DNA of 64,000 bases from Gammaproteobacteria bacterium (GTDB lineage: Bacteria > Pseudomonadota > Gammaproteobacteria > Ga0077554 > Ga007554). Under the pieces are notes generated by a model. It was not told the DNA's origin and ran no database searches. It saw only the letters and a list, made by a program, of their open reading frames with translations. Where the stretch lies: assembly GCA_040183005.1 (NCBI GenBank), contig JAMPIW010000007.1, positions 983,314 through 1,047,313 of the forward strand. The letters are read 5' to 3'. Positions 336 through 20,592 of this stretch are shown one piece after another. Within the stretch, counting starts at the first letter, position 1. Each line of letters opens with the position of its first letter. The translations under genes were made by a program, and so were the position numbers.

Positions 336-1469
336 TCAGAAGCCCGCGAAGTGCTCTGCCTTCACTTTCTTCGCCACCGCCTGCCCCACCCGCTGCAACT
401 CGGCGATATGCGCCACGGAATCGAGCTTCTGCACGTCTTCCGGTTTGATATCCGCCAGCTCCAGGGCTGACAGTCCCTTCGGGGACAGCTCGGCGTTGTA
501 GCGCATGTAAGTAAAGAGTTTACCCGGCCCCACCGGGCCCTTCGCGCCGATCATGTTACCCACCTCCCGATCAAGCTCATCGCCGGAGAGACATTTGCCA
601 AACACACGGCAGAGCGTGTCCTGCTCGTTGAGCGCCGCGTACATCAGCGCGGAGGGAATAGAGCCTGCGTTGTAGAGCAGATTCATTTCGTTGGGATCGA
701 GGTCGGCATTGGCCTGCGGGCTGGTGCCCGTGCCGATCGACACCACCAGCATCTTGTCTTCACCGGCGGACCAACCCATCTTGTAGGGCTCCACCGTTGC
801 CATCAGGAAGGCCTGGAACGCCGGGTTGTTGTAGGTGGTGATGCCGCCATCGACAAAGACGAACTGGTATTCGTTCTGCGTACCTGGGTCGAAGGTCACA
901 ACCTCGGGTGGAAAATACACCGGTGCCGCCGTGCTTGCGCGCACCAACTGCCACAGCGGCAACTTGAGGTTGCAATCCTTCCGTTCCGGCTGGTTGTATT
1001 TAGCGTACGGATTGTTCGAAACCGGCCAGGGCGAGTCGGTGGTGGCGTTGCGCATCACCATCATCAGCACCGTCTTCAGCTTGTCGCTGCCCAGGGCCGT
1101 GTCCTTGCCGAATACCTCCTGCATTTTCGTCGCCAGCTTATCGTCTTCGAATTTGTAACGGAAGCGTTTGAGCAGGGATGCCTTGTCGAACATGTCGGTG
1201 CCGCTGCTGATGTAGAACGAGCGGATATCGGACACCTTCATGCCGAGCGAGATGCACGCCGCGATGATGGCGCCGGTGCTGGTGCCCGCGACAAAATCGA
1301 AATAATCGGCCAACACAAAATCGTCGCCGCGCCCCAGCTTCTGGCGCAGCATGTTTTCAATTTCGGCCAGCACTTCCACCGTCATCATCCCGCGTATGCC
1401 GCCGCCGTCGAGGGCGAGGATTTTCTTGGGGCCGGGGGTTTGGATGCGTTTTTTCAGTTGCTCGTTCAT
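336..1469 (-). CDS. Patatin-like phospholipase
   Basis: ALDGGGIRG oxyanion motif, GTSTG nucleophile elbow and DGG catalytic Asp are all intact; 377 aa. Confidence 0.93.
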   Translation of the reverse strand: MNEQLKKRIQTPGPKKILALDGGGIRGMMTVEVLAEIENMLRQKLGRGDDFVLADYFDFVAGTSTGAIIAACISLGMKVSDIRSFYISSGTDMFDKASLLKRFRYKFEDDKLATKMQEVFGKDTALGSDKLKTVLMMVMRNATTDSPWPVSNNPYAKYNQPERKDCNLKLPLWQLVRASTAAPVYFPPEVVTFDPGTQNEYQFVFVDGGITTYNNPAFQAFLMATVEPYKMGWSAGEDKMLVVSIGTGTSPQANADLDPNEMNLLYNAGSIPSALMYAALNEQDTLCRVFGKCLSGDELDREVGNMIGAKGPVGPGKLFTYMRYNAELSPKGLSALELADIKPEDVQKLDSVAHIAELQRVGQAVAKKVKAEHFAGF

Positions 1470-1703
1470 GGTGTTTTCCTTAAGTGTTGTCAGTTTTCTT
1501 CTGGTGAGCGGAAAGGCTGTTTAGCTCACCCCATTTGCGGTCTTGCTGGTTTGCTGCGGAACTGGCTTGTCCGGCGGAATCGGCAGGCCGGGGCACTGCT
1601 CGATGTAATTGATATCCGGAGACACCCACTCGCGCCATTCCTTCTGGCTCATGTTACGGGTGAGTTTCTTGCAAAGTTCGTCGGGCCATATCTTGGGGGC
1701 GGG

Positions 1704-3434
1704 CCACAGCCGCAGGGTCTTGTCATAGCTGCCCGAGACGATGCGCGTGCCGTCGGGGCTGAAGGCCACTCTCGACACGAGGCCCTGATGCCCCTGCAGC
1801 GGAGCGCCGATAGGCTGGCCGGTTTGCGCGTCCCACAGCCGCAGGGTCTTGTCCCCACTGCCCGAGACGATGCGTGTGCCGTCGGGGCTGAAGGCGACGC
1901 TCGACACGTAGTCCTGATGCCCCTGCAGCGGCGCGCCGATGGGCGACCCGGTTTTCGCGTACCACAGGCGCAGGGTCTTGTCCCCACTGCCCGAGACGAT
2001 GCGCGTGCCGTCGGGGCTGAAGGCCACGCTCGTCACCCACTCCTGATGCCCCTGCAGCGGCGCGCCGATGGGCTGGCCGGTTTTCGCGTCCCACAGGCGC
2101 AGGGTCTTGTCCCAACTACCGGAGACGATGCGTGTGCCGTCGGGGCTGAAGGCCACTCTCGACACGAGGCCCTGATGCCCCTGCAGCGGAGCGCCGATAG
2201 GCTGGCCGGTTTGCGCGTCCCACAGCCGCAGGGTCTTGTCCCCACTGCCCGAGACGATGCGCGTGCCGTCGGGGCTGAAGGCCACGCTCCACACCGTGTC
2301 CTGATGCCCCTGCAGCGGCGCGCCGATGGGCTGGCCGGTTTTCGCATCCCACAGGCGCAGGGTCTTGTCTTCACTGCCCGAGACGATGCGCGTGCCGTCG
2401 GGGCTGAAGGCCACGCTCCACACCGTGTCCTGATGCCCCTGCAGCGGCGCGCCGATTTGCTGGCCGGTTTTCGCATCCCACAGGCGCAGGGTCTTATCCC
2501 AACTGCCCGAGACGATGCGCGTGCCGTTGGGGCTGAAGGCCACGCTCGACACTGCGTCCTGATGCCCCTGCAGCGGCGCACCGATCGGCGATCCGGTGTT
2601 CGCGTCCCACAGGCGCAGGGTCTTGTCCCCACTGCCCGAGACGATGCGCGTGCCGTCGGGGCTGAAGGCCACGCTCGTCACCCACTCCTGATGCCCCTGC
2701 AGCGGCGCGCCGATGGGCGACCCGGTTTTCGCGTCCCACAGGCGCAGGGTCTTGTCAAAACTACCGGAGACGATGCGCGTGCCGTCGGGGCTGAAGGCCA
2801 CTCTCGACACGAGGCCCTGATGCCCCTGCAGCGGAGCGCCGATAGGCTGGCCGGTTTTCGCATCCCACAGGCGCAGGGTCTTATCCCGACTGCCCGAGAC
2901 GATGCGCGTGCCGTTGGGGCTGAAGGCCACGCTCGACACCGCGTCCTGATGCCCCTGCAGCGGCGCACCGATGGGCGATCCGGTGTTCGCGTCCCACAGG
3001 CGCAGGGTCTTATCCCGACTGCCCGAGACGATGCGCGTGCCGTTGGGGCTGAAGGCCACGCTCGACACCGCGTCCTGATGCCCCTGCAGCGGCGCACCGA
3101 TGGGCGATCCGGTGTTCGCGTCCCACAGGCGCAGGGTCTTGTCCCCACTGCCCGAGACGATGCGCGTGCCGTCGGGGCTGAAGGCCACGCTCCACACCGT
3201 GTCCTGATGCCCCCGCAGCGGCACGCCGATGGGCGACCCGCTGTTCGCGTCCCACAGGCGCAGGGTCTTTGTCCCCACTGCCCGAGACGATGCGCGTGCC
3301 GTCGGGGCTGAAGGCCACGCTCGACACCGCGTCCTGATGCCCCTGCAGGGGCGCGCCGATCGGCGACCCGGTTTTCGCGTCCCACAGGCGCAGGGTCTTG
3401 TCCCCACTGCCCGAGACGATGCGTGCGCCGTCGG
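1704..3434 (-). repeat. Near-identical 129-bp (43-aa) WD40 tandem repeat array
   Basis: Unit [43 protein letters not shown], about 13.4 copies here; the first blade begins at 5091-5140 on the other side of the IS. Confidence 0.95.
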
Positions 3435-3470
3435 TAGTTGTCAAGCTAGTTGTCGCCTGAATGCTTGAAT

Positions 3471-4550
3471 TTATGCTGCCTTTTTGAGTTCTAAATTTTC
3501 CTCCTTTGGATCGGTTTTTTCGGCGACTTGTTGATCGGGATTCAAGTGAACTACGCGGACTGGCCGCCAGTTTCGAGTAACGCCACTCCAACGCTCTGGA
3601 TGCCTTTTCTTCGCTGCTTCATAGACGTCGACGCGCTTCTGTAGCAACGCGGTGTCCAGGCCCGCATGGCGCTCTGCGGGGGTAACGAATCTGATGGCAC
3701 TGTGACGATGTTCATGGTTGTACCAATGAACAAATGTGCTGACCCACTGCCTGGCGGCAATGAGACTTTCAAACGGTCGGAAGGGATAGACTGGCCGGTA
3801 TTTCAACGTCTTGAATAGCGACTCCGAAAAAGGATTGTCATTGCTGACCGCCGGGCGACTGAACGATGGCATCACGCCCAGCGCTTGCAGGGTGGCCAGC
3901 ATCGTGGCGCCTTTCATCGGGCTGCCATTGTCAGAATGCAACACCACCTGATTCAGTGCGATGTTTTCCCGCTTGCAAATATCGCGCATAACTTCGCTTG
4001 CCAGGTCACTACTTTCTGCATCATAGATCTGCCAGCCAACGATTTTTCGGCTAAAAATATCCATGAACAAATACAGGTAAAAATAGATTCCCTTCACCTG
4101 CGTTGGCAGATAAGTGATGTCCCAGCTAAATAACGCATTGGGCGCCGTTGCACAGAGCGCACGCGGCTTGTGGCGCTGTTGCGCGGGTCGTTCTGCGCCA
4201 CGATGCCTGAGCTGATGTGCTTCTCTCAGAGCGCGGTAAATGGTTGACTCAGAAGCGATATATTGCCCACGGTCGGCCAGCCGAGGAACGATTTGACCTG
4301 GCGGAAGATCCCCAAATTCGTCTGAATTCACGACTGCCAGCAGGCGCTCGCGTTCCGGCACACTGAGCTTGTTTTTGGGTGCCTGCAACCGCATGGGTCG
4401 CTGATCGCCGCGTAATGGGTCGAGCTGCCAGCGTTGCAAAGTGCGTTCGCTGAGAGAGATCGCCGCACAGGCGCGATCCTGGTGCGCACCCGCAGCGATT
4501 GCTTCCGCCACCAGTGTCATGACTTGGCCGCGCTCTGCGAGGGAGGTCAT
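3471..4550 (-). CDS. IS3-family transposase OrfB (DDE/rve core)
   Basis: [22 protein letters not shown] and WYNxEHRHSAI motifs; overlaps the orfA stop (ATGA). Confidence 0.92.
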
Positions 4551-5032
4551 TTGACCTCGTCCTCCCAGAGCGCGCGGAACTTTTTTTGCAGGATCAGCAA
4601 GGCTGCCGCCTCCGCCAATGCCTTCTCTTTGCGCACTAACTCACGCTTGAGTTTCTCATTTTCATCTTTCAATGTCCGAAATTCACGGATGCCTTGCACC
4701 GCTTTCACCTCGGTACAAAAAGCCGTTTTCCAGCTTGCCAGATGATGGGCAAATAAACCTTTTTCACGACACCACGCATGCAAGGTCTCGCCTGACAAGC
4801 CATGGGTTTCATGCAATGCCACCAGCTGCTCCTCCGCGCTCCAGTCCTGGGGCCGTTTCTCTTTTGTCACCGATATACTGAGCTTGCCCATCGATTTCCT
4901 TTTCATCCAATTCTTTAACGTATGGAAACTAACGTTCAGGTCTTCCGCCACCGACCGGATTGTCCGATCTCCACGAGAAAATACCTTGACCAGCGCTTGT
5001 TCTATAAATGCCCCAGAATACGTTATTTTCAT
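4547..5032 (-). CDS. IS3-family transposase OrfA (HTH)
   Basis: HTH-like N-terminus; A7G slippery motif (minus strand, about 4580-4587) near the 3' end, typical of -1 programmed frameshifting in the IS3 family. Confidence 0.88.
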   Translation of the reverse strand: MKITYSGAFIEQALVKVFSRGDRTIRSVAEDLNVSFHTLKNWMKRKSMGKLSISVTKEKRPQDWSAEEQLVALHETHGLSGETLHAWCREKGLFAHHLASWKTAFCTEVKAVQGIREFRTLKDENEKLKRELVRKEKALAEAAALLILQKKFRALWEDEVK

Positions 5033-6172
5033 CGTTGCCTCTATTTTAGAAAATTAAAATTTAGAGGCGACAACTAGCCTGACACAGGGGGCCGTCGGGG
5101 CTGACGGCGACTGCTAAGACTCGAGAATCCGCATCAATGACCTTCAACAAATGTGAGTGGCCAAATAGTGAGACACCTATTGTATTCTCGATCTCGCTAT
5201 GCGGCGCAATCCGGTGTGCTGCAAGCAGTTTCAACAATCCGAGCACCGTGCCACCTGGGCGTGCGCCCGACAGCATGGCTTGCGCTTCAGCATTAAGCTG
5301 CAGCGCTGTTGCCTGCTTGGATTCCTGATCCGCTTTCCAGGCGAGCCACACAGCCAGGAATGCAACCGCGATAGCCGCGAAAAGCAGGTATCTTAATAGT
5401 TTGCGGCTTTTTTTAAGCCTCGCGGCATCGGCCTGTGCCTGCTCAGTGGCACGCTTCTGTTCGGCCGTGAGTGCTTCTGCGGCAGCCTGCTTCTCCCGTG
5501 CGGCATCGAGTTCCGCCTGACGCCGGCGTTCTTCTTCCACCTGCTTTTGTGTCTCTCTCTGGCGCGAAGCCAACATGAACTCGCTGACGGGTTCAAGTCG
5601 TCTACGATAGGCAGGTCTGGCGGCGAGCGCCTCGGCGATGGCCAGCCGTTCACCCACCATCAGCCAGGGGTCCTTGCGGCCGTTCTTCTCCCAGTCTTGC
5701 GCAGCCTGTTCAACTGCATCGGCGACCTTCAGGTCTTCGCGCTCGGCGTGCAGCCAGTTGGCGAGTACGTCCCAGCGGCGCAACAGCGCTTCATGGGCTA
5801 CCTCGACGATTTTCTCGCCTTCGCGCTGGTCGGTGAGCAGCAGTCGTTTATCCGCCAGGGCATCAATGAGCTTATGGCTCTCGGGTGGTAGATCGGACAG
5901 CCGCGCTGTGCGGCGCATGGGCTCGTCGTTTTGCGGATTGATCGTGGCGAGCCAGGGAATGAAGGCGGCCCGCAGAGTTTCCAGTTGGGTCTGACGCTCG
6001 GCCGGGTCGCGGGCGAGCACGGACTCCGCTTCATCGTTCACCACGCTGCGCATGCCGCCCATGACGTCGTATTCGTCGAGGCGCAGGTCGCCGTCGCGTA
6101 AGCGTCCAGCCGTCCCACCTGTTTTTATAGTTACCCTTGCGCCACCCTGTGGTTTTCACAGGAGAGCGGCAC

Positions 6173-6490
6173 ATGAATATGAAATCGTTGGAGGCAAGTC
6201 GCCACTACTGGCAGCAGCACGTCGCGGCCTGGCGGTGTAGTGGCCTGAAGCAGATTGATTATTGCAGGCAGCATGGACTGGTGCCGAAGCAGCTTCGCTA
6301 CCGGATCGCCAAAGACCGTCGAAACGACGTTTGCGTGAGCGGCACGGATGCGGTCACGCTGGTGCCCGTGCAGATCGAGGAGGTCAACGGTGCTGGGTTG
6401 GTGTTGCAGAACGCGGGGGGGTGGCAGCTCACGCTGCCGTCCGGTGTTTCGGCAAGCTGGCTGGCAACCTTGCTGCGGGGCTTGTCATGA
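6173..6490 (+). CDS. tnpA: IS66 accessory protein TnpA
   Basis: WQQHVAAWRCSGLKQIDYCRQHGL HTH pattern; RBS GGAGAG before ATG 6173. Confidence 0.85.
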   Translation: MNMKSLEASRHYWQQHVAAWRCSGLKQIDYCRQHGLVPKQLRYRIAKDRRNDVCVSGTDAVTLVPVQIEEVNGAGLVLQNAGGWQLTLPSGVSASWLATLLRGLS

Positions 6491-6828
6491 TTGCGCAGCC
6501 GCATACGATCTGGGTGGCGGTCGCGCCGATGGACATGCGGGTGGGCATCGATGGTCTGTCGCTGCGGGTGCAGCAGGCGCTGGGCAAGGCCCCCTGCGAT
6601 GGCTCGGCCTATGTGTTTCGTAACCGTCGCGGTGATCGGCTCAAGGTGTTGCTGTGGGATGGCAATGGCGTGTGGTTGTGCCAGCGCCGGTTGCATCGGG
6701 GGCGCTTCGTCTGGCCGCAGGCGGACAGTCCGGTCTGGTCATTGGAACTTGCCCAATGGCAGTGGCTGATTGCTGGTGTCGACTGGCAGCGGATGTCGGC
6801 CCAACCGGCGGCCGACTGGCGTTTGTGA
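6487..6828 (+). CDS. tnpB: IS66 accessory protein TnpB
   Basis: PMDMRVGIDGL, YVFRNRRGDRLKVLLWDGNGVWLCQRRL motifs; ATGA overlap with tnpA. Confidence 0.92.
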   Translation: MIAQPHTIWVAVAPMDMRVGIDGLSLRVQQALGKAPCDGSAYVFRNRRGDRLKVLLWDGNGVWLCQRRLHRGRFVWPQADSPVWSLELAQWQWLIAGVDWQRMSAQPAADWRL

Positions 6829-6910
6829 CGATTGAAGCCGCCATGAAAAATGGTGAATAAAAACCTGTATTTATGCGGCTTTCTGCGGTGTTTCATGGTA
6901 TAATTTTGTC

Positions 6911-8536
6911 ATGAAAAACGTTGCCGAAGCAGCCCTGCAAGACGCTCCTGCCGCTCTCAAAAACTGGGCTGTGCTGGCGATGCAGCAGCTCGACGAAAAG
7001 AGTAACAAAGTACAACAGTTAAGCGATCAACTGTCACTGCGCGACCAGCAGCTCAAACACGCCGACCTCAAAATCCAGGCCCTGACCTTCGAACTCGCCT
7101 ACTACAAGCGCATTCGCTTTGCCAACAAGAGCGAACAATTCTCCTTGGAGCAGCGCGAGTTGTTCGAGGAAAGCTGGAATACCGACACCAGTGCGCTGGA
7201 AGCCGAAGTGGAACAGCTGGCATCTACCCAGCAACCCAAGCGCGAACGCGCCGGTCGCCAGCCGTTGCCGAATCATCTCGGCAACCGCTCCATGCGTTGC
7301 TCTACCTCCTGCATCCATGCAGTCGTCCCGCGCATCGAGCATCGCCACGAACCTGAGGGTTGCACCTGCGGCCAGTGCGGCAAGGATCTGGTCAAGATCG
7401 GCGAAGACATCAGCGAGCAACTGGATGTCGAGCCCGCCCGCTTCTTCGTGCATCGCCACATTCGTCCGCAGTATGCTTGCCGTGCTTGTGAGACCGTCAG
7501 TGCGGCGCCGATTCCGCCGGCGGTCATCGACGGCGGCATGGCGGCGCCGGGCTTGCTCACCTGGGTGATGGTCAGCAAATTCATGGATCACCTGCCTCTC
7601 TACCGGCTGGAGCAGATCGCCGCGCGCAGCGGGGTCGTCCTGTCACGCTCCACCTTGGCCGAATGGGTAGGTCGCATTGGCGTGGCACTCCAGCCGCTGG
7701 CCGACCGGCTGGCCGAGATACTTCGCCAGCGCACCGTCCTGCACGCCGACGAGACCCCGGTGCAGCAACTCGACCCCGGACGGGGAAAAACGCTACGCGC
7801 CTTCCTCTGGGCCTACCGAAGTTGCGATCTCGAACAGGGAGACCCCCTCGTCCTCTTCGACTACCAGACCGACCGGCGCGGCAAACATGCCAGGAACTTC
7901 CTGCAAGGCTGGAAGGGTGCCCTTATGGTCGATGATTATGCCTGCTACAAAGGCCTGTTCGCCCGCGCCGTGGTGGAACTGGCGTGCCTGGCCCATGCGC
8001 GGCGGAAATTCTACGATCTGCATGCCGCCCATCAGAGCCCGATTGCGGCCGAGGCATTGAAGCGCATTGCCGGACTCTACGCCATCGAAGATCAGGGCAA
8101 GACCCTGGGCATCGAAGATCGTCATGCATTACGCCAGCAACACGCCAAGCCGAAGCTGGACGAATTCCACGCCTGGCTCCAGAACACACGGCTCACCACC
8201 GCCACGGGTAGCGGCACCGCCAAGGCCATCGACTACAGCCTCAAACGCTGGGATGCAATCAAGCGCTACCTCGGGGATGGCCGTTACCCCATCGATAACA
8301 ACCCGGTGGAAAATGCTATCCGTCCTATTGCGCTTGGTAAAAAGAATTGGCTGTTCACCGGCAGTGAACGCGCGGGCCGCCGCGCCGCCGCCATCCAGAG
8401 CCTGTTCGCAACGGCGAAACTCAACGGCATCGAGCCGGCTGCCTGGCTGAAGGATACGCTGGAGAAACTGCCGACCTGGCCTAACAGCCGCATTGATGAG
8501 CTGTTGCCGTTGCGGTCTGTGCAGGCATCAGGCTGA
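6911..8536 (+). CDS. tnpC: IS66 transposase TnpC, with a 16-aa in-frame insertion
   Basis: CTCGQC...CRAC zinc ribbon, LHADETP, MVDDY, CLAHARRKF, IDNNPVENAIR motifs. Confidence 0.95.
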   Translation: MKNVAEAALQDAPAALKNWAVLAMQQLDEKSNKVQQLSDQLSLRDQQLKHADLKIQALTFELAYYKRIRFANKSEQFSLEQRELFEESWNTDTSALEAEVEQLASTQQPKRERAGRQPLPNHLGNRSMRCSTSCIHAVVPRIEHRHEPEGCTCGQCGKDLVKIGEDISEQLDVEPARFFVHRHIRPQYACRACETVSAAPIPPAVIDGGMAAPGLLTWVMVSKFMDHLPLYRLEQIAARSGVVLSRSTLAEWVGRIGVALQPLADRLAEILRQRTVLHADETPVQQLDPGRGKTLRAFLWAYRSCDLEQGDPLVLFDYQTDRRGKHARNFLQGWKGALMVDDYACYKGLFARAVVELACLAHARRKFYDLHAAHQSPIAAEALKRIAGLYAIEDQGKTLGIEDRHALRQQHAKPKLDEFHAWLQNTRLTTATGSGTAKAIDYSLKRWDAIKRYLGDGRYPIDNNPVENAIRPIALGKKNWLFTGSERAGRRAAAIQSLFATAKLNGIEPAAWLKDTLEKLPTWPNSRIDELLPLRSVQASG

Positions 8537-9964
8537 GCTGTATAGATGGGGCGGCTGGACGCTTACGCCGTCGCTGCCGTAATCCCGGTACAGCCGCGCC
8601 AGGGTCAGGGAGAGCAGCGGCAGCGTGTCTGCGCCGTGGGCGCAGTCACTGAGCATGCGTTCTACCAGGTCCGGTTTTACTTCCAGCCGATTGCCCGCCA
8701 CCGTGGCACGGTGTGCCGGGCCGGTGATGATTTCCTTGAACTGCGACGGCGGCATGGGTTTGAGATCGTCGAACACTCGGGCGTTCAACCCGGCCAGTTC
8801 GGGGGCGGTCTGCAAGGGTTCGTAGCGGTCCGAGCGGATGGTGAAGGCAACGATCAGCGACGGCTGATCCGGTCCGACATCGCGCAGGGTCTCGCCGATG
8901 AGGGCCAGGAAGCGACGCGCCTCGTCGGTGGCGTCCGGGTTGAACAGCTCCTCGGCCTGATCGACTGACAGCAGCAGGGTCGGCGGCGGGATGTCCTGGC
9001 CGTTCGCGATCAGCCGGTTATGGGCGGCACGCTGGATATCGGTGAGCAGGCGCGGTAACGAGTTGACCTCTGTCAGCAGGGCCGCCTTGATGGCGCCAAA
9101 AGTCTGACCACTCAGACCCAAGGTGGTGTGTGCCTTGTGGATGGCCATCGCCAAACCATATTCGCCGGTAAGGGGTTGGCGCTCGGGCCGGATCACTTCC
9201 AGCGGCAGGAAATGCCGGTCGTCTCGCTTCAGCCGGGGCAGCAGGCCAGCCCGCAGGAACGAGGACTTGCCGGTGCCGGAGGGGCCGAGAATAACGAACA
9301 GGGTTTCTACTCCGGTGGCACGCATGCCACGCAAGGCGTCCAGGCCACGGACGATCTGGGCATCCCGGCCGAAGAAGATCGCCGCATCGTTTTCCTCCAG
9401 GGCGGACAAGCCGCGATAGGGCGGACGCTGGGGATCGTCTGGCGGTGGCCAGGGAAAATAGCGCGCGTCCAGGCCGGCGTTTTCCAGCCCCATGCGCAAG
9501 CGCGTGAGTCCGTCGGTGAGAAATTCGATCTGCTGCGGCTCTCCTTTGTGGCTGAAAGTAAGCGCCGTCTTTGGGCCACCGCCCACCAGATGGCAGAGCT
9601 GCCATTCCGCGGTCAGCTCGGTGGGCAGTTCGCCGATCTCCACAGGCTTGAGAATGGCGCCGAAGATGCGTTTGTTGAGGCTCTTGGCGAGCAGAAACTC
9701 AGCCAGGCACCACTTGGATTTCGCCCACGCGGGCGTGACGACAAACACCACCGCCTCGCAACGGTCGGCCGCGCGCCGCAACGTCTCCTGCCAGCGCTCG
9801 CCCGCCGCCAGACCGCGCTGGGGATCGATGTCGAGAAAGACGTCATCCCAACCGTTCGCGGCCAGCCACTCCTTGAGTGCAACGGCCTCAAGTTCGTCGA
9901 TGCTGGAGTGGCTTAGGAAGATGCGGGACATGGAGACTCCTTTGCAGTCATCGCTGTTAATTCA

Positions 9965-10017: not shown

Positions 10018-11949
10018 TTAACCATAGACCACGAATCCCCCCGCCGGCACACTGACCCTTACCGCTCTGCCGTTGCGCGGCTCGATGGACGCCATGGCGC
10101 CGATCTGCGCGGGGTTGGTCGAGTAGAGGCAGGTCAGCGCCCCCGGTGCGGCGTGCAGGGCGGCGTCGATGGTCACCCAAGCCGACCGCTCGCTGTCCGC
10201 GTCGGTGTTGATGGCCAGCAGGATCTCCTGGTTGTTGAAGAGGCGCGACCAGGGCACCAGCGAGAGGATTCGGCCTCCGATCATGCGGGGCAGGCCGAAG
10301 GTGCCCGGCTCGCCGCTGTCGGAGATCTCGCGCAGGTACTGGCGGCCGCGCCGCAGGGGGAGAAGATCGCGGCGCAGTGTCGTCACCTCGGCGATGAAGC
10401 GGTAGATCTCGTGGTCTTCGTTAAAGAAGTGGCGGTCAATGCTCTGCAGTGAGCCGAAGTCACCGCCGAACATACACTCACGCAGGAACCGGTCGTTGTC
10501 TCCCGCCCCGTCGAAGCCCTGCTCGGTGCCATAGTAAAGGCAGGGGATGCCCATGGAGGTGAGGTTGAGGCCCAGCACGGCCTTGAGGTGGGCATAACCA
10601 TTGTTGATTTTGTCGCTGCAGAAACGGCCCTTGTTTTCGCCCTTGCGCACCTGGTCGTGATCGTCGAACAGGGTGACGACGTGCTTGCCGAACCAGACGT
10701 GGGAGGATTTGTTCACCAGCGCCGAGTTGCGGAACAGGTTGAAGTAATCGGTGGGCTCGCGCCAGCCCTTGGCCAGGTAGTCCATGCGGTCGGGGATGTC
10801 GTCTATCCCCAGGGCCGCGTCCAGGCCGGTTAGCTCCAGGGTGTTATAGGCATTCTCGCGCCCACCAGTGATCTCGCCCACCAGGAAGAAGTTTTCCTTG
10901 CCCAGGGTCTGGGCGAATTCCTTGATGACTGCAGCGAAGTAGCGCGTCGCGCCCGGTTCCATGTGTTTGACGGTGTCAATGCGAAAGCCGTCGATGTCGG
11001 CCAGGGCGATCCAGAACTTGTAGACATCGCACAGGGTGTCTAGAGCCGGAGTATTGTGGAAGGCGTCTACAATGCGCCTGTTCTGCGCGTCCCGGTCGTG
11101 CTCGCCGTGGTGAACATCCTTCAGGGTGACGAAGTCGCCCTCATAGTATTCGGGATCATAGTCCCAGCTATTGATGCGGCCCTTGGCGGTAAATGTGGCT
11201 GCGTCTTGCAGTTCCGATGGCCACACAGCGTCGTTGGGCCAGGCGTTGCCGTGGGTGGTGGGGTCGATGGCAGTGAAAGGGATATTGGCCTCGCCAAAGG
11301 CGTTGCGCCAGCCCGCCACCGGATAGGGTCTGCCATCCCAGCGCGGATCAATGTAGGTATTCCCCTTATCGTCCTTGGCGGGATAACGGTTCGGATTATT
11401 CTGGTAACCGAACACGTCGCCGGTGTGGTTGAGAATGATGTCCAGGATCACACAGATGCCATGGGCATGGGCCGTGTTCACCAGGTCGATGAGGTCCTGG
11501 CGGGTGCCGAAATGGGGGTCTACATCGAGGAAGTTCTGGATGCCGTAACCGTGGTAGGAGTGCTTGTCTGACTCCACCTGCTTGAACACCGGGCTGATCC
11601 ACAACGTACTCACGCCCATGCGTTGCAGGTAGCCGATCTTGCTCTCCAGTCCTTTCAGTGTGCCGCCCAGCCACTCATCACCGGCATCGGCCCAGGTGGC
11701 CCGATCCGCCTTGTAGGCATCGTCGGGAAAGCGGAACGGGAGCGTGGTACCGCTGGCAACGGGATTGCCGGCAAGGTCGCGATAGTCTTTTTCCCGTCCG
11801 TCGGAAAAACGGTCGAGCATCAGGAAGTAGAGCACCTGATCCTCCCAGGCTGGAGGGGAAGCCCGGTATTTTGGGCGCCGCAGGGTAGTCCAGTTGATGT
11901 CGGTAAGGCTACGTTCCAGTTGCGCGTGGGTGGTGTTGTCGATGTTCAT
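10018..11949 (-). CDS. GH13 alpha-amylase-family glycosidase, cytoplasmic, 643 aa
   Basis: FLMLDRFSDG, GGTLKGL, YHGYG, DIILNH, DGFRIDTVKH (nucleophile), LVGEI (acid/base), DDHD. Start placed at ATG 11949 behind a GGAGG RBS; no signal peptide. Confidence 0.92.
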   Translation of the reverse strand: MNIDNTTHAQLERSLTDINWTTLRRPKYRASPPAWEDQVLYFLMLDRFSDGREKDYRDLAGNPVASGTTLPFRFPDDAYKADRATWADAGDEWLGGTLKGLESKIGYLQRMGVSTLWISPVFKQVESDKHSYHGYGIQNFLDVDPHFGTRQDLIDLVNTAHAHGICVILDIILNHTGDVFGYQNNPNRYPAKDDKGNTYIDPRWDGRPYPVAGWRNAFGEANIPFTAIDPTTHGNAWPNDAVWPSELQDAATFTAKGRINSWDYDPEYYEGDFVTLKDVHHGEHDRDAQNRRIVDAFHNTPALDTLCDVYKFWIALADIDGFRIDTVKHMEPGATRYFAAVIKEFAQTLGKENFFLVGEITGGRENAYNTLELTGLDAALGIDDIPDRMDYLAKGWREPTDYFNLFRNSALVNKSSHVWFGKHVVTLFDDHDQVRKGENKGRFCSDKINNGYAHLKAVLGLNLTSMGIPCLYYGTEQGFDGAGDNDRFLRECMFGGDFGSLQSIDRHFFNEDHEIYRFIAEVTTLRRDLLPLRRGRQYLREISDSGEPGTFGLPRMIGGRILSLVPWSRLFNNQEILLAINTDADSERSAWVTIDAALHAAPGALTCLYSTNPAQIGAMASIEPRNGRAVRVSVPAGGFVVYG

Positions 11950-12002
11950 GATGTAGACCTCCTGTCTGTCTGATTGATCAGGCCGAAATCGGCCCCCTGC
12001 AT

Positions 12003-12206
12003 TTATCCTTCTTGATCCAATGCGGCAAGTTGCTCCTCGAACCAGCCGATCCAGTCCTGATGATTGGGCGGCAGTCGGCTGCTGGCGCAGCAGACTTTCG
12101 AGTTCGGCCAGCACTTCCACCGTCATCATGCCGCGTATGCCGCCGCCGAGGGCGAGGACTTTCTTGGGGCCGGGGCTTGGATGCGGGCTATGAGTTGTTC
12201 GTTCAT
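12003..12206 (-). pseudogene. Deletion scar: 5' end of a second patatin gene fused to the 3' end of a TPR gene
   Basis: 12206-12079 reads MNEQLIARIQAP/GPKKVLAL-GGGIRGMMTVEVLAELE (paralog of 1469-1350, with 1-bp and 3-bp deletions). 12078-12003 reads RLPPNHQDWIGWFEEQLAALDQEG* (paralog of the end of 13515-15473). Confidence 0.88.
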
Positions 12207-13514: not shown

Positions 13515-15473
13515 TTAATCGCCATCAAGTTTATGCAATTGTGCCTCGAACCAGCCGATCCAATCCTGATTGGGCGGCAGTTGGCCGCGAGTCTTCAAAC
13601 CTTGCTGAATATCAAGGCCACGCCGCAGATAGCCGCGCCGCTCGTCTGCCGACAGGCCAGCGTGCATACCGAGTTTCCCGCAGGACATGACGATATCGAT
13701 TTGCCACTGCACATTGGCCGCATCGCGCGCGGCCAGCGTTTCGCGGATGTCGAGGCTGTTGCGGTAGGCCGCCAGCGCACCCGCCAGATCGCCCTGCGCC
13801 ACCCGCACGTCGCCAATCTTGTTGTGACTGATCGACAGGTTGCGCTGCCACTCAGTGTTGGCGGCATCGAGTGCGGCCAACGTCTCGCAAATTTCATGGC
13901 TCTTGCGGTAGGCTGCCAGCGCCCCCGCTAGGTCGCCCTGTGCCACCAGCACATCGCCGATGCCGTCGTGACCGACCGCCAGGTCGCGCTGCCACCCGGT
14001 GTTGGCGGCATCGCGCGCGACCAGCGTCTCGCAAATTTCATGGTTCTTGCAGTAGGCTGCCAGCGCCCCCGCCAAGTCGCCCTGCGCCACCCTCACGTCG
14101 CCGATCCTGTTGTGGCTGACCGACAGGTCGCGCTGCCACTCGGTGTTGGCTGGATCGCGCGCGGCCAGCGTCTCGTGGATGTCGAGGCTGTTGCGGTAGG
14201 CCGCCAGCGCACCCGCCAGGCCGCCCTGCGCCACCAGCACATCGCCGATGCCGTCGTGACCGACCGCCAGGTCGCGCTGCCACTGCGTGTTGGCCGCATC
14301 GCGCGCGGCCAGCGCCTCGGCAATAGCGAGGCTGTTGCGGTAGGCCGCCAGCGCCGCCGCCAGGTCGCCCTGCGCCACCAGTACGTCGCCAATTCTGTTG
14401 TGACTCACCGACAGGTCGCGCTGAGCCTCATCATTGTCGGCGTCTGATGCCACACGCTGTTCAGCCACTGACTGTGCAATATCATAGCTGCGTCGGGCCG
14501 CCGCCAAGTCACCCAAGGCCACGTGCAGATCGCCGACATAAAAATGGGTTTCGATGTCCTCGGGATCGTGTTCTGCCGCCCGTTGATAAGCTGCTAACGC
14601 AGCGCGTACATCGTGTGAAAAAGCCAGTGCACCTTGTTCGCGTGCGAGCGCCGCCGCGCGTCGGCGAGCGGCGATTTCATCCTCACCGGTGACTTGTGGT
14701 GATTGGGCTTCTTCGTCTGCGGCGCGTTCTTCGGCGCGCATCAGGGCTTCAGCCGGTTGGGTATCGCCTTCTTGCAACGCCACTGCGGCGGCGATCTGCG
14801 CCGTGCTCGCGTCGGGTTGGGCAGCAGCAGTCAGTGTGCGCGCCACGGCCATTTGCAATTGCGTTTCCAATTCAGTGACGCGATTACTCATCTCAATAAC
14901 GCTGTTACGCAATGTGGTGTTTTCGGTATCTTTGCTATCAAGCTGTCGCGTCAGTGTAGCGATGATCTGCATCACTTCCGGGGAGTTTGGGGAGACCTGG
15001 GATGTGACCCCTTGCAGCTTCTGAATTTCGTTCTGTACCCCGGTGCTCAAGGCCTGAATCAGGTCTTTAATATCGCTGAATTCTGCGGGGCGGGCGTCGC
15101 GCTGTACTTCCTCGCGAAAGGCCTGGACGCAATTGAACAGATGCGAGTGGCCGATATCAGACAGCGCGACATCGGGAATGCTGGTGCGTAGCAAGGCGAT
15201 GTGAGGCTTGCCTTTGCCGCGACGGTACTCCAGATGTGTAATCGAGAGATTGTCCGGGTTGCCGTCGCCGGGCTGAAACCCATAACGGTGGCCCAATATC
15301 AGCACATACAAGTCGCAGCCGTCTATATCCGCCAGGCAACTGTCACGCACTGTCTCGCTGTCTGGACGATAGCTATGCACCGGCTGATGATTCGCCGCCA
15401 CGAGCCAGTCGAACACCGCCTTACGCTCATCCTCCAGGTCCTTCAAGGTGGATGAGACATACACTCTAGCCAT
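13515..15473 (-). CDS. DUF4062 (TIR-like) - helical/coiled-coil - TPR protein, no NTPase
   Basis: VYVSSTLKDLEDER...CDLYVLILGHRYG...SITHLEY; five 48-aa repeats at the C-terminus. Confidence 0.85.
   Translation of the reverse strand: MARVYVSSTLKDLEDERKAVFDWLVAANHQPVHSYRPDSETVRDSCLADIDGCDLYVLILGHRYGFQPGDGNPDNLSITHLEYRRGKGKPHIALLRTSIPDVALSDIGHSHLFNCVQAFREEVQRDARPAEFSDIKDLIQALSTGVQNEIQKLQGVTSQVSPNSPEVMQIIATLTRQLDSKDTENTTLRNSVIEMSNRVTELETQLQMAVARTLTAAAQPDASTAQIAAAVALQEGDTQPAEALMRAEERAADEEAQSPQVTGEDEIAARRRAAALAREQGALAFSHDVRAALAAYQRAAEHDPEDIETHFYVGDLHVALGDLAAARRSYDIAQSVAEQRVASDADNDEAQRDLSVSHNRIGDVLVAQGDLAAALAAYRNSLAIAEALAARDAANTQWQRDLAVGHDGIGDVLVAQGGLAGALAAYRNSLDIHETLAARDPANTEWQRDLSVSHNRIGDVRVAQGDLAGALAAYCKNHEICETLVARDAANTGWQRDLAVGHDGIGDVLVAQGDLAGALAAYRKSHEICETLAALDAANTEWQRNLSISHNKIGDVRVAQGDLAGALAAYRNSLDIRETLAARDAANVQWQIDIVMSCGKLGMHAGLSADERRGYLRRGLDIQQGLKTRGQLPPNQDWIGWFEAQLHKLDGD
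13704..14423 (-). repeat. Five 144-bp (48-aa) TPR-like tandem repeats
   Basis: Unit QRDLxVxHxxIGDVxVAQGDLAGALAAYRxSxxIxETLAARDAANTxW. Confidence 0.9.
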
Positions 15474-17741: not shown

Positions 17742-20592
17742 TCATTGGATGGCTGCCCCCAATTCGGTGAGGTGCAACTTGATTTCATCTTCCGTCCTGC
17801 CCATTGCCTGCAGAAGGCCGACGTAGTTCTTCGCGACGGTGAGCGAGTTCGGGTGCTCCGTCCCCAGGCTTACGATAAAGACCTCCAGCGCACGGCGCAT
17901 CAGCGGCTCGGCCTCCACCCAGCGGTGGGTGGCTTGGAGCAGTTGGGCCAGATTATTGAGGTCACGGGCAACGCTGGGGTGATCCGCGCCGAAGCTCGCC
18001 TCGTCGATGGCCAGCGCCCGGCGCATCAGCGGCTCGGCCTCAGGCAGGGGATTGGTGTCCTGGAGCAGTTGGGCCAGGTTGTTGAGGTCGGTAGCGACCT
18101 CGGGGTGATCCGCGCCGAAGCTCGCCTCGTCGATGGCCAGCGCCCGGCGCATCAGCGGCTCGGCCTCCACCAGGCGGTGGGTGGCCTTGAGCAGTCCGGC
18201 CAGGTTGTTGAGGTCGCGGGCGACATCGGGGTGATCCGCGCCGAAGCTCGCCTCGTCGATGGCCAGCGCCCGGCGCATCAGCGGCTCGGCCTCCGGCAGG
18301 CGGTTGGTGGCCTGGAGCAGTAGGGCCAGGTTGTTGAGGCGGATGGCGACCTTCGGGTGATCCGCGCCGAAGCTCGCCTCGTCGATGGCCAGTGCGCGGC
18401 GCATCAGCGGCTCGGCCTCCGCCAGACGGTTGGTGGCCTGGAGCAGTTGGGCCAGGTTGTTGAGCTCGATAGCGACCCTGGGGTGATCCGCGCCGAAGCT
18501 CGCCTCGTCGATGGCCAGCGCCCGGCGCATCAGTGGCTCGGCATCAGGCAGGCGGTTGGTAGCCTGGAGCAGTGAGGCCAGGTTGTTGAGCTCGATAGCG
18601 ACCCTGGGGTGATCCGCGCCGAAGCTCGCCTCGTCGATGGCCAGCGCCCGGCGCATCAGTGGCTCGGCATCAGGCAGGCGGTTGGTAGCCTGGAGCAGTG
18701 AGGCCAGGCTTGTTGAGCTCGATAGCGACCCTGGGGTGATCCGCGCCGAAGCTCGCCTCGTCGATGGCCAGCGCCCGGCGCGTCAGCGGCTCGGCCTCGG
18801 CGTACTGGGCCTTCGCGAGGAGCAGCAGCCCGGTCTGGTTCAGCAGCCGGGTGGTGGGATCAGCGAGTCCGGCCGCATCGGCGTGGGCCGCGACCGCCCG
18901 CGCATGGGGCGCCAGCGGGTCGAGCACCGGCCAGTTGCGCACGTCCTGGGGATCGCCCACGAAAGCGGCGTCGACCCAGCGCAGTGCTTCGGCGAGGGCG
19001 GTGTGCGCCGGGTCGTCGCGCTGGCTGCGGCGGGTGACCTCCTGCACCAGCCGGTGGACGCTGAAGGTGGGCGTGTCGGCGGCGCGGGTGATCAGGGAGT
19101 AGGACTCCAGCTCGGCCAAGGCGGCGAAGGTATCGGCTGCGGCGGCATCGAGCTCCGGAACGGGCACGTCAAGCAGGGATTCGGGAATCGGCTCCGGCGC
19201 CAACCAGGCCAGGCGCTGCAACAGCCGCCGGGCGGGCTCACCAAGGCGCTCGAAGGAGGTCTGCCAGGTGACGGCGACACTTTTGGGGTACTGCATCAGG
19301 CGCGGGTCGAACCACGCCAGCACCTTGTCGCGCTGCTCCTGCCATTCTTCGAGATAGCGGGCGAAGCCGAGGCGGCGCTGGGCGATGTAGGCGCCCGCCT
19401 GTTCCAGGGCGAGGGCGAGGCGGCCGAGTTCTTTGGCCAGGGTTCGCGCCACGGCGGGGTCGTCGGCCTGCTTGCGGCGCTGGGCTGCGGTGCGCGCCAG
19501 CAGGAATTCTGTGGCGGCCTCGGGCGAGAGCACGCCGAGCGGCAGCGCCGCGATGCTGCCGCTCCAGTTGGCGAGCCGGCTGGTGAGCAGGGCGTGGCCG
19601 CCGCAGAGTTGCGGCAGCAGGGCTTCGACGGCCGCAGCGTCATCTTCCGTATCGATGTTGTCGAGAATGAGCAGCCAGCCGGGGTGCTGCCGCAGCCACA
19701 CCACTACCGCGTCGCGCTGCCTGGCTTCGTCCGTCTCCCGCTGTTCGGGCAGGTCGAGGATGGCGTGCCCACACAGCGCCGCCAGGTTGCGTTGCAGCGC
19801 CCCAGTGCTATCGGCGCTGTCGGCGCCGACGAACAGCAGCGCCGTATAGTCGTCGGCGCGCCGCCAGGCGTACTCCAAAGCCAGCCGCGTCTTGCCGATG
19901 CCGCCCATGCCGTTGACTACCCGCGCAACGACGGGCGTGGCGGCGCTTTTTGAAACGGGGGCTGGGACGGGGGCGAGGGCGGGAACGGGACCGAAGCCTG
20001 CAGTGAGGTCTTCGAGCGCGGCCTCGCGCCCCTTGAACAGATCGCCGATGGTGAGATAAGGCAGATTGCGCGGCTGCGGGCCGCGCTGTTGTAGCCGAAA
20101 GCCGTCACGCAGCACCAGCGCGCGCAGCTGGTCGAGTGAGCTGAACGGGTTCCAGTCCTTGCCGCTGCTGCGCAACTCCGTGAGGAACGCCTGCTGCAAC
20201 TGCGCGGCATCGTCTGATTGTTGAACCGCATGGGCCGCGATAAACTCGGGCGACGCGAAATAGAGGTAAAGCTCCTTCACCGGCTGGCGCGAGCCATCGA
20301 GCCGCTCACCCCTGGCAAGGTAATACTCCCACTGCGAATAGGAACGGCGCGGAAATCCGGCAGGACGCGCCACCTCATCCGGCTCCCAGCCGTAGGCATC
20401 CCCCACCAGCGCAATCACCCGATCACAGGTGGCGATGTACTGCTCCAGCTTCTCCAGCAACGAACGGCCATGCTGCTGAAAATCCTCCTGCACCACCACC
20501 TCCGCCCCTACCGCGCGCAAGTCGCTGGCCAAGGCATCGCGGCAATCCTTGAGCTGTGCAGATACGGCGGAGAGGAAGATCTTCATGATCAA
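17742..20592 (-). pseudogene. DUF4062-NB-ARC (STAND)-TPR NLR-like gene with a +1 frameshift at about 18709
   Basis: KIFLSAVS...SQWEY N-domain; Walker A GMGGIGKT; Walker B LLILDNID. One repeat has AGGCTTGTTG where its siblings have AGGTTGTTG; removing that base gives 949 aa. Confidence 0.87.
17890..18790 (-). repeat. About seven 126-bp (42-aa) kinesin-light-chain-type TPR repeats plus cap
   Basis: Unit AEPLMRRALAIDEASFGADHPxVAxxLNNLAxLLQATNRLxE; the first two units are essentially identical in DNA. Confidence 0.93.

Follow-up and report, generated by a model that had tools for sequence, protein, structure and literature searches.

The window analysed here is a 64,000-nt stretch of a gammaproteobacterial genome (positions 983,314 to 1,047,313 of contig JAMPIW010000007.1, assembly GCA_040183005.1), and it carries a minus-strand tandem array of 14 WD40 units that forms the C-terminus of a 1422-codon gene. 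This gene encodes, in order, a TIR domain, an nSTAND1 NTPase, a helical/coiled-coil region, one transmembrane helix, a linker, the 14 WD40 blades and a conserved tail (Table 1). In its present state the gene is a pseudogene with three lesions, two insertion sequence (IS) insertions and one +1 frameshift, and deleting the two IS elements, one copy of each target duplication and one A restores an uninterrupted frame of 1422 codons. A first-pass annotation of the array had likened it to the fungal HET-E/NWD receptors and proposed a recombination-diversified recognition surface in a bacterium; it overlooked the 1-nt insertion, the IS element that adjoins the 5′ end of the array and the context of the host gene.

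Table 1. Features of the receptor pseudogene and its downstream neighbour (positions are those of the window)
Feature	Position	Strand	Details
Patatin-like phospholipase gene	336..1469	minus	starts 51 nt after the stop codon of the WD40 gene
Conserved C-terminal tail	1521..1703	minus	LRLWPAPKIWPDELCKKLTRNMS..EW..WVSP....QCPGLPIPPD; two family-invariant cysteines; stop codon 1521-1523
WD40 array, 14 head-to-tail units of 129 nt (43 codons)	1704..3434	minus	Tandem Repeats Finder, anchor spacing, unit table, Pfam, AlphaFold2 model
Unit starts (RIVSGS)	3423, 3294, 3164, 3035, 2906, 2777, 2648, 2519, 2390, 2261, 2132, 2003, 1874, 1745	minus	
Frameshift, one extra A (AAA instead of AA) in unit 2	3268..3270	minus	GACAAAGACC, versus GACAAGACC or GATAAGACC in the other 13 units
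IS3-family insertion sequence, 1660 bp, within blade 1	3432..5091	minus	orfA 4547-5032, orfB 3471-4550; inverted repeats; rve/HTH_Tnp_1 domains
Middle gene fragment	5096..6097	minus	C-terminal third of nSTAND1, helical/coiled-coil region, transmembrane helix, linker, first strands of blade 1
Transmembrane helix	5343-5399	minus	LLRYLLFAAIAVAFLAVWL; hydrophobic 19-mer, Kyte-Doolittle hydropathy 2.29, residues 686-704 of the restored protein
IS66-family insertion sequence, within the NTPase domain	6098..8566	plus	tnpA-like 6137-6490, open reading frame in the tnpB position, tnpC 6911-8536
N-terminal gene fragment	8575..9931	minus	TIR (WCLAEF motif) and first two thirds of nSTAND1; start codon 9929-9931

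The repeats constitute a single array with a period of 129 nt, 13.4 copies, 90% matches and no indels (Tandem Repeats Finder, score 2655), and the anchor CGCATCGTCTC (RIVS) occurs 14 times at a spacing of 129 nt throughout, apart from one interval of 130 nt. Each translated unit opens with RIVSGS and closes with (D/N)GT, and the 14 blades encoded would make up two seven-bladed propellers; the portion 3′ of the frameshift matches the Pfam WD40 family in 12 stretches (E 4e-163). The units are tandem copies as first described, although 'almost identical' overstates their likeness at the DNA level, where mean pairwise identity is 90.5% (range 84.5-99.2%; 95.1% when the eight variable codons are left out) and 33 of the 129 sites vary. 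At the protein level, internal identity is 0.87 (mean pairwise, 13 full units), above the 0.7 cut-off used for Highly-Repetitive WD40 proteins. The array has a GC content of 0.70, no stop codon interrupts the 12 units after the frameshift, and the tail that follows contains alignment columns (W300, C311, N317, W323 and C337) that are invariant among 51 sequences. When the genome was searched with the unit by blastn and tblastn, only the 1704-3434 locus matched, which leaves no second gene that could act as a donor for conversion.

The identity of the host gene follows from its two upstream fragments. The N-terminal fragment matches Pfam TIR_2 (E 2.4e-13) and positions 1-239 of the nSTAND1 profile (PF20703; E 1.4e-46, 160.3 bits), and the middle fragment matches positions 253-378 of that same profile (E 8.7e-23, 82 bits, cut-off 27.1); both pieces thus exceed the gathering score, and the match is contiguous once the IS66 element is removed. 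The NTPase retains a Walker A motif (GPSGTGKSS) and a Walker B motif (LLLSVDQAEE). Pfam gave no NACHT (PF05729) match in the gene, whose NTPase is recognised as nSTAND1 plus a weak AAA_16, and at the N-terminus it found TIR_2 in place of HET or another fungal NLR effector.

Both IS elements left target duplications in the gene. The IS66-family element, whose inverted repeats begin GTAAGCG and whose transposase matches DDE_Tnp_IS66 (E 2e-97), is flanked by the 8-bp duplication GCCGTCGC (6090-6097 and 8567-8574), and the IS3-family element, at the 5′ end of the array, by the 4-bp duplication CCGT (3428-3431 and 5092-5095). The ends of both elements were defined by other copies in the genome. Of the other IS3-family copies, two are 100% identical to the element at 3432-5091, and the three with flanks examined each carry a 4-bp target duplication of their own; for IS66, long stretches elsewhere in the genome are 99-100% identical, and of the full copies whose flanks were read one has its own target duplication and a second does not. 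The third lesion lies in the 130-nt interval, in which 3268-3270 is the best position for a deletion and removal of one A restores the frame. Because both IS elements are identical or nearly so to other copies in the genome and the rest of the array is still open, inactivation is judged from these comparisons to be recent, which in turn explains why the remainder of the array is open. Programmed frameshifting or phase variation was considered for the +1 change and ruled out, since going from AA to AAA creates no slippery tract and the gene is in any case inactivated by the two IS insertions. The genome as a whole is rich in IS elements, with at least a dozen full or partial copies of IS66 and six of the IS3-family element, several of them 100% identical, and both of the insertions that disrupt the receptor gene belong to active IS families of this genome.

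Variation among the units is concentrated at few positions. The three spots named in the first-pass annotation, GHQ-xx, V-xx-VAF and SGS-x-D, were recovered with all of the strings it had listed. The per-codon unit table has DA four times, DT and GL three times each, EW twice and DY once after GHQ, and SS, WS, SR or TS before VAF; the SGSxD position holds G, R, F, W or E, and Y in unit 14. These residues travel in pairs (DA/SS four times, DT/WS and GL/SR three times each, EW/TS twice and DY/SS once), so that the cassette counts given earlier (QDAVSS four times, QDTVWS and QGLVSR three times each, QEWVTS twice) proved exact. In codon terms, radical variation is found at codons 7, 31, 32, 34 and 35, with up to five residue types in the 13 full units and a sixth (Y) at codon 7 of unit 14. 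A second and milder tier, which the annotation had missed, comprises codons 17, 20 and 41, where changes are conservative (K/N/Q, S/Q and D/N, respectively, as in DA[K/N/Q]TG[S/Q] and SP[D/N]G), and six further codons, among them 15, 18, 21, 24 and 27, show a single change each, mostly in unit 2.

The pattern of substitution separates contact positions from scaffold. By Nei-Gojobori counts on the 13 complete units, the 35 remaining codons have a nonsynonymous divergence (dN) of 0.011 and a synonymous divergence (dS) of 0.169, a ratio of 0.06, and the five hypervariable codons have dN 0.49 and dS 0.26, a ratio of 1.9 that is estimated from about three synonymous sites and, like any dN/dS value between paralogous repeats that exchange sequence, is not rigorous. 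The scaffold is therefore under strong purifying selection, and nonsynonymous change exceeds synonymous change at the hypervariable codons in the per-codon comparison that the annotation had proposed. The synonymous sites of the units differ by only about 15%, compared with proportions of synonymous differences (pS) of 0.5-0.7 in divergent homologue arrays, so the likeness of the units reflects recent common descent or sequence exchange and not protein-level constraint alone. The mosaic character reported earlier was also borne out, because the units fail the four-gamete test, with all four gametes in 32 of 153 informative site pairs. In addition, units R06 and R11 share both ends and differ in the middle, and the pair R05-R06 resembles the pair R10-R11; together with the mosaic units, this resemblance indicates exchange and block duplication. 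The blades have thus been kept alike by recent duplication of units plus recombination or gene conversion.

To place these residues in a structure, blades 8-14 and the tail (1524-2603, minus strand) were modelled with AlphaFold2 (AF2) from an alignment of 50 homologues. The resulting model (predicted local distance difference test score 94.1, predicted template modelling score 0.87) has 28 strands arranged as seven four-stranded blades, followed by two short helices. It matches WD40 propellers in Foldseek (E 1e-37), its best fold matches being seven-blade designs derived from the Nostoc 'highly repetitive propeller', PkwA (5YZV), 2YMU and WDR5, and it superposes on 5YZV and the 2YMU-derived designs with a root-mean-square deviation of 0.9-1.6 Å at 45-49% identity. 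A sequence search of the TIR-NTPase part against the Protein Data Bank gave no match. On the DSSP string, the hypervariable residues fall on the last two positions of the D-A loop, on residues 2-3 of strand A and on the first position of the B-C turn, which correspond to R1-3, R1-2, R1, R2 and D-1 in WD40 nomenclature; the V-S-S-V segment is the strand-a fingerprint, which under the scheme of Wu et al. (2012, PMC3419727) fixes codon 34 as R1, codon 32 as R1-2 and codon 7 as D-1. These three are the top-face residues that contact a partner in 29 solved WD40 complexes (Wu et al., 2012, PMC3419727). By these positions, then, the hypervariable residues point out of the top face of the propeller and none of the variable residues occupies a core strand position, which is the arrangement that the first-pass annotation had suggested looking for.

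The hotspot pattern recurs in a large family. A search with residues 1-800 of the restored protein found more than 2500 relatives, the best 73% identical; typical relatives are about 1400 aa long, are named 'nSTAND1 domain-containing NTPase' or 'TIR domain-containing protein', and come from Pseudomonas, Rhodococcus, Arthrobacter, Nocardia, Azohydromonas and many metagenome-assembled genomes (MAGs). Further hosts, among them Azotobacter, Nitrosospira, Thauera, Azoarcus and Mycobacterium, came from scanning species-representative genomes, and by these searches intact homologues are widespread in Proteobacteria and Actinomycetota. Homologues with the conserved C-terminal tail have a median length of 1420 aa and a modal number of 14 units (27 of 61 complete homologues; another 14 have 13). 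Among homologues, the internal identity of the 43-aa units is continuous from 0.28 to 0.88, which places the array described here (0.87) near the top, and in several of them the arrays are just as homogenised and the same positions are hypervariable. For the 14 homologous arrays with at least 70% internal identity, mean entropy is highest at D-1 (2.17), R1-2 (1.82) and R1 (1.80), with R1-3 and D+1 next in rank. Out of 43 positions, the leading three would coincide by chance with the three published hotspots once in 12,341. At the DNA level, three independently homogenised arrays (two from Mycobacterium and one from Arthrobacter), segmented with a hidden Markov model of the unit, have a proportion of nonsynonymous differences (pN) at the hotspots that is 1.4-2.6 times the scaffold pS, with a scaffold pN/pS of 0.33-0.40. 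Because homologous homogenised arrays vary at the same positions, hotspot-focused variation is, in the sequences compared, a property of the family and not an accident of this copy.

The N-terminal chassis is also found with other C-termini. In other members it is joined to TPR arrays, to FGE-sulfatase-type domains or to a periplasmic-binding-protein fold (Peripla_BP_6), and homologues with 51-59% identity over the N-terminal 800 aa have an FGE-sulfatase (CLec-fold) sensor instead of WD40 repeats; as judged from these domain assignments, this exchange of C-terminal domains on one chassis is typical sensor swapping. The closest genomic relative is only 80% identical in the N-terminal part, on a truncated MAG contig, and among 40 related genomes no orthologue was found in the 11 from the same genus or family. 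Next closest among genomic relatives for the N-terminal part is one in a Methylococcaceae MAG (P0015/L011), annotated as an 892-aa protein in which TIR-nSTAND1 runs into an alpha-amylase-like C-terminus; the gene immediately upstream of the receptor in the window likewise encodes an alpha-amylase (10018-12129). The presence of an alpha-amylase near the receptor gene in both suggests a neighbourhood that is shared but rearranged.

The reading that best accommodates these observations, to which a probability of about 0.85 is assigned, is that the 129-nt repeats are the 14-blade C-terminal sensor of an NLR-like TIR-nSTAND1 receptor whose top-face residues have been diversified, and that this copy was recently inactivated. 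Several points weigh against it. The receptor function of the family, ligand binding included, is a prediction from sequence; PADLOC v2, which includes models for Avs1-5 and bNACHT, has no model that matches the NTPase fragments, and the defence role is drawn from context. In addition, the term 'top face' is derived from secondary-structure (DSSP) position and textbook WD40 topology, the second-tier codons 17, 20 and 41 lie in the C-D and A-B loops of the bottom face, and the limits of the dN/dS ratio were noted above. As for inactivation, an error of sequencing or polishing among the near-identical repeats could by itself account for the frameshift.

If this receptor reading is correct, intact relatives would bind a ligand through the top face of the propeller, and binding would license NTP-dependent oligomerisation of the STAND module. 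Oligomerisation would bring TIR domains together for NAD+ cleavage or production of a signal, and the outcome would be cell death or growth arrest, possibly by way of the downstream patatin phospholipase. These steps are modelled on STAND/NLR and TIR proteins, such as Apaf-1, Avs and bacterial TIR NADases (PMC7159879, PMC13581612). The sensor itself would be diversified by unequal exchange and conversion between units, with the invariant scaffold stretches providing homology while the hotspot cassettes are reshuffled.

The surroundings of the pseudogene include a candidate partner. The product of the patatin gene matches Pfam Patatin (E 1e-25) and the PADLOC model of a CBASS-type phospholipase effector (E 6.5e-46), and in nine homologous loci of Proteobacteria and Actinomycetota (L018, L020, L021, L029, L030, L033, L066, L079 and L087) the gene immediately after the receptor encodes a patatin homologue with 35-60% identity. 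The same placement in nine loci marks patatin as a recurrent partner, which is possibly the executioner; in this window the gene is likely to be an operon partner or effector of the receptor, and the comparison suggests a conserved two-gene unit of TIR-nSTAND1-sensor plus patatin. The receptor gene belongs to an island with a GC content of 0.62, compared with 0.53 in the rest of the window, that also has further TIR, patatin, NB-ARC/TPR and caspase-type genes. The receptor gene is accessory and was probably acquired, since it is without a counterpart in the 11 genomes of the same genus or family and lies in this GC-richer island. The TIR part of the receptor weakly matches ThsB-like models in PADLOC.

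An alternative is that the repeats are stability-driven consensus units of a scaffold or signalling protein without a role in conflict, and that the hotspots bind a fixed cellular partner. Greater stability has been reported for WD40 proteins of the highly repetitive type (Hu et al., 2017, PMC5587647), the NTPase is not recognised by PADLOC, and an anti-phage or incompatibility role of the family is putative. Against this alternative stand the fusion of a TIR effector to a STAND NTPase, the location in a GC-rich island among genes of the types listed above, and the swapped sensors (TPR, FGE-sulfatase-type or periplasmic-binding-protein fold) on one chassis; FGE-type sensors of nSTAND1 proteins are targets of diversity-generating retroelements (PMC10907252). 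The distribution of the gene is also patchy, as the failure to find the gene in the 11 genomes of its genus and family illustrates, and this explanation is considered improbable.

Slightly less credence is given to the proposal that the array is an assembly artefact, in which the assembler would have collapsed or expanded the near-identical units or put them in the wrong order. A stretch of 1.7 kb of near-identical 129-nt repeats is hard for short-read assemblers, units R10 and R13 differ by only 1 nt, and R03, R04 and R07 differ by 2-4 nt. Every unit can nonetheless be told apart, no indel is present apart from one base, and the array sits between unique flanks on a 1.9-Mb contig of a nine-contig genome; in addition, the array has exactly the 14 units that are the mode of the family (27/61), and the restored protein of 1422 aa compares with a family median of 1420. 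Least probable of all is neutral decay, in which unit differences would be random mutations that arose after inactivation and not the imprint of a recognition surface: the gene carries three lesions and the second repeat-bearing NLR of the island is likewise frameshifted, but the scaffold dN/dS of 0.06, the absence of a stop in the 12 units past the frameshift, the variation of the same positions in intact homologues and the IS copies that are 100% identical to others, and hence date inactivation as recent, all speak against it. Neither evenly spread variation nor intact homologous arrays without the hotspot pattern were found when both were checked for.

For the receptor reading, the location of the sensor is of interest. 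In 103 of 121 homologues, one strongly hydrophobic helix at about residue 683 separates NTPase from sensor, and it is conserved whatever the sensor type (WD40, TPR, FGE-sulfatase or Peripla_BP_6). The count of lysine plus arginine residues (K+R) is 4.5 before the helix versus 2.6 after it, and the part after the helix is free of cysteine except for the two invariant cysteines of the tail. The helix, the K+R bias, the periplasmic-binding-protein sensors and the two invariant cysteines together suggest a cytoplasmic TIR-NTPase and an extracytoplasmic propeller. By extension, the whole TIR-nSTAND1 family may consist of single-pass membrane receptors whose sensor lies outside the cytoplasm, which would combine a Toll-like topology with an NLR-type engine and would sense envelope or periplasmic rather than cytosolic ligands; this proposal is tentative, and we would place it at a little under even odds. 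A published description of such a TIR-nSTAND1-transmembrane-sensor topology was not found in the literature searched. If the proposal is true, detecting invaders from outside the membrane would be new for a STAND receptor. The analogy with animal Toll-like receptors is one of topology only: in both, a sensor made of repeats would be linked through one transmembrane helix with a TIR domain in the cytoplasm, whereas here the topology is predicted, a STAND NTPase lies between TIR and membrane, the repeats are WD40 and not LRR, the chain order is reversed, and homology is limited to TIR.

Comparison with known systems indicates how far the likeness to fungal receptors extends. The HET-E/HET-D/NWD NLRs of Podospora anserina (Paoletti, 2007; Chevanne, 2010; Dyrka, 2014, PMC4986451) also join an effector, a STAND NTPase and a WD40 array, and they share with the present array units that are 80-90% identical, hypervariable top-face positions, an excess of nonsynonymous change and mosaic units that point to repeat shuffling. 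In contrast, the gene described here is bacterial, is not known to confer incompatibility, has nSTAND1 and TIR in place of NACHT and HET, units of 43 aa instead of 42 and a transmembrane helix between NTPase and sensor, and is a pseudogene. The HET-E analogy thus holds, on the features compared, for mechanism and evolutionary regime and not for membership, because NACHT and HET are absent. The wider proposal of a recombination-diversified recognition surface in a bacterium stands to the extent that a STAND-NTPase (NLR-like) receptor has this array as its sensor, but such surfaces had already been described for bacteria and the gene at hand is a pseudogene.

Precedents in prokaryotes are of several kinds. 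Highly-Repetitive prokaryotic WD40 proteins have been catalogued, with diversity at hotspot sites (Hu et al., 2017, PMC5587647), and the present array resembles them, including the 14-blade Nostoc punctiforme protein (2YMU) and PkwA (5YZV), in internal identity, in its 14 blades and in its diversity at predicted hotspots; those proteins were described as the propeller alone, whereas here the propeller sits on a TIR-nSTAND1-transmembrane chassis and is inactivated. Bacterial NLRs with WD and TPR repeats of 80-90% identity have also been reported, and a regime of the fungal type was proposed for them (Dyrka et al., 2020, bioRxiv 10.1101/2020.01.06.895854). Highly repetitive bacterial WD40/NLR arrays with variable hotspots are therefore already published, and the array in this window is an inactivated copy of a known phenomenon. 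The nSTAND1 family was defined in predicted counter-invader systems (Kaur et al., 2021, PMC8195603), and nSTAND1-CLec 'antigen sensors' are diversified by diversity-generating retroelements (DGRs; Dore et al., 2024, PMC10907252). With these systems the present gene shares the NTPase family (PF20703), an N-terminal TIR domain and a variable, diversifying C-terminal sensor; it differs from the DGR-borne sensors in that diversity arises by repeat homogenisation and shuffling and not by reverse transcriptase, and no DGR was seen next to the gene. The logic of effector, STAND module and repeat sensor is likewise that of Avs and other bacterial NLR-related defence proteins (Gao, 2022; Kibby, 2023; PMC13581612), and WD40 propeller sensors are recognised among defence-associated STAND clades (PMC13581612), although no Avs or bNACHT model of PADLOC matches the gene and the predicted membrane-spanning topology has not been described for Avs.

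Against this background, the array illustrates cleanly, in a bacterium, how the binding surface of an immune-type receptor is diversified by repeat homogenisation and shuffling, as in fungal NLRs, while relatives on the same chassis reach the same end through a diversity-generating retroelement. It supports the general point, already published for bacteria, that NLR-like sensors of all kingdoms evolve surfaces in which the scaffold is constant and the contacts are variable. The practical value lies in the family, since its intact homologues in culturable hosts (Pseudomonas, Azotobacter, Rhodococcus and Arthrobacter) provide a testable system.

Several further genes lie nearby. Two more TIR genes follow patatin on the same strand (L009:13610-15646, just before the start of the window, with the first running into the window at 3-332): one encodes 327 aa, in which a TIR domain and a hydrophobic helix are combined with a C-terminal part rich in beta structure, and the other encodes 342 aa and matches the PADLOC model 'TIR-TM' (E 1e-68). 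A second NLR-type gene (17742-20592, minus strand) contains a TPR array at 17885-18798 (126 nt, 7.2 copies, 90% matches) in which units 2 and 3 are 100% identical. Its first unit ends AACAAGCCTG, versus AACAACCTG in the others, and this +1 insertion cuts the sensor off; the two repeat-bearing NLRs of the island therefore both have a +1 break near the start of the array, and neither insertion lies in a long homopolymer. Two other tandem arrays of the island lie in minus-strand open reading frames, at 13714-14423 (144 nt, 4.9 copies, 83% matches) and 27630-28575 (126 nt, 7.5 copies, 85% matches), and are presumably TPR-type repeats of further STAND/TPR proteins.

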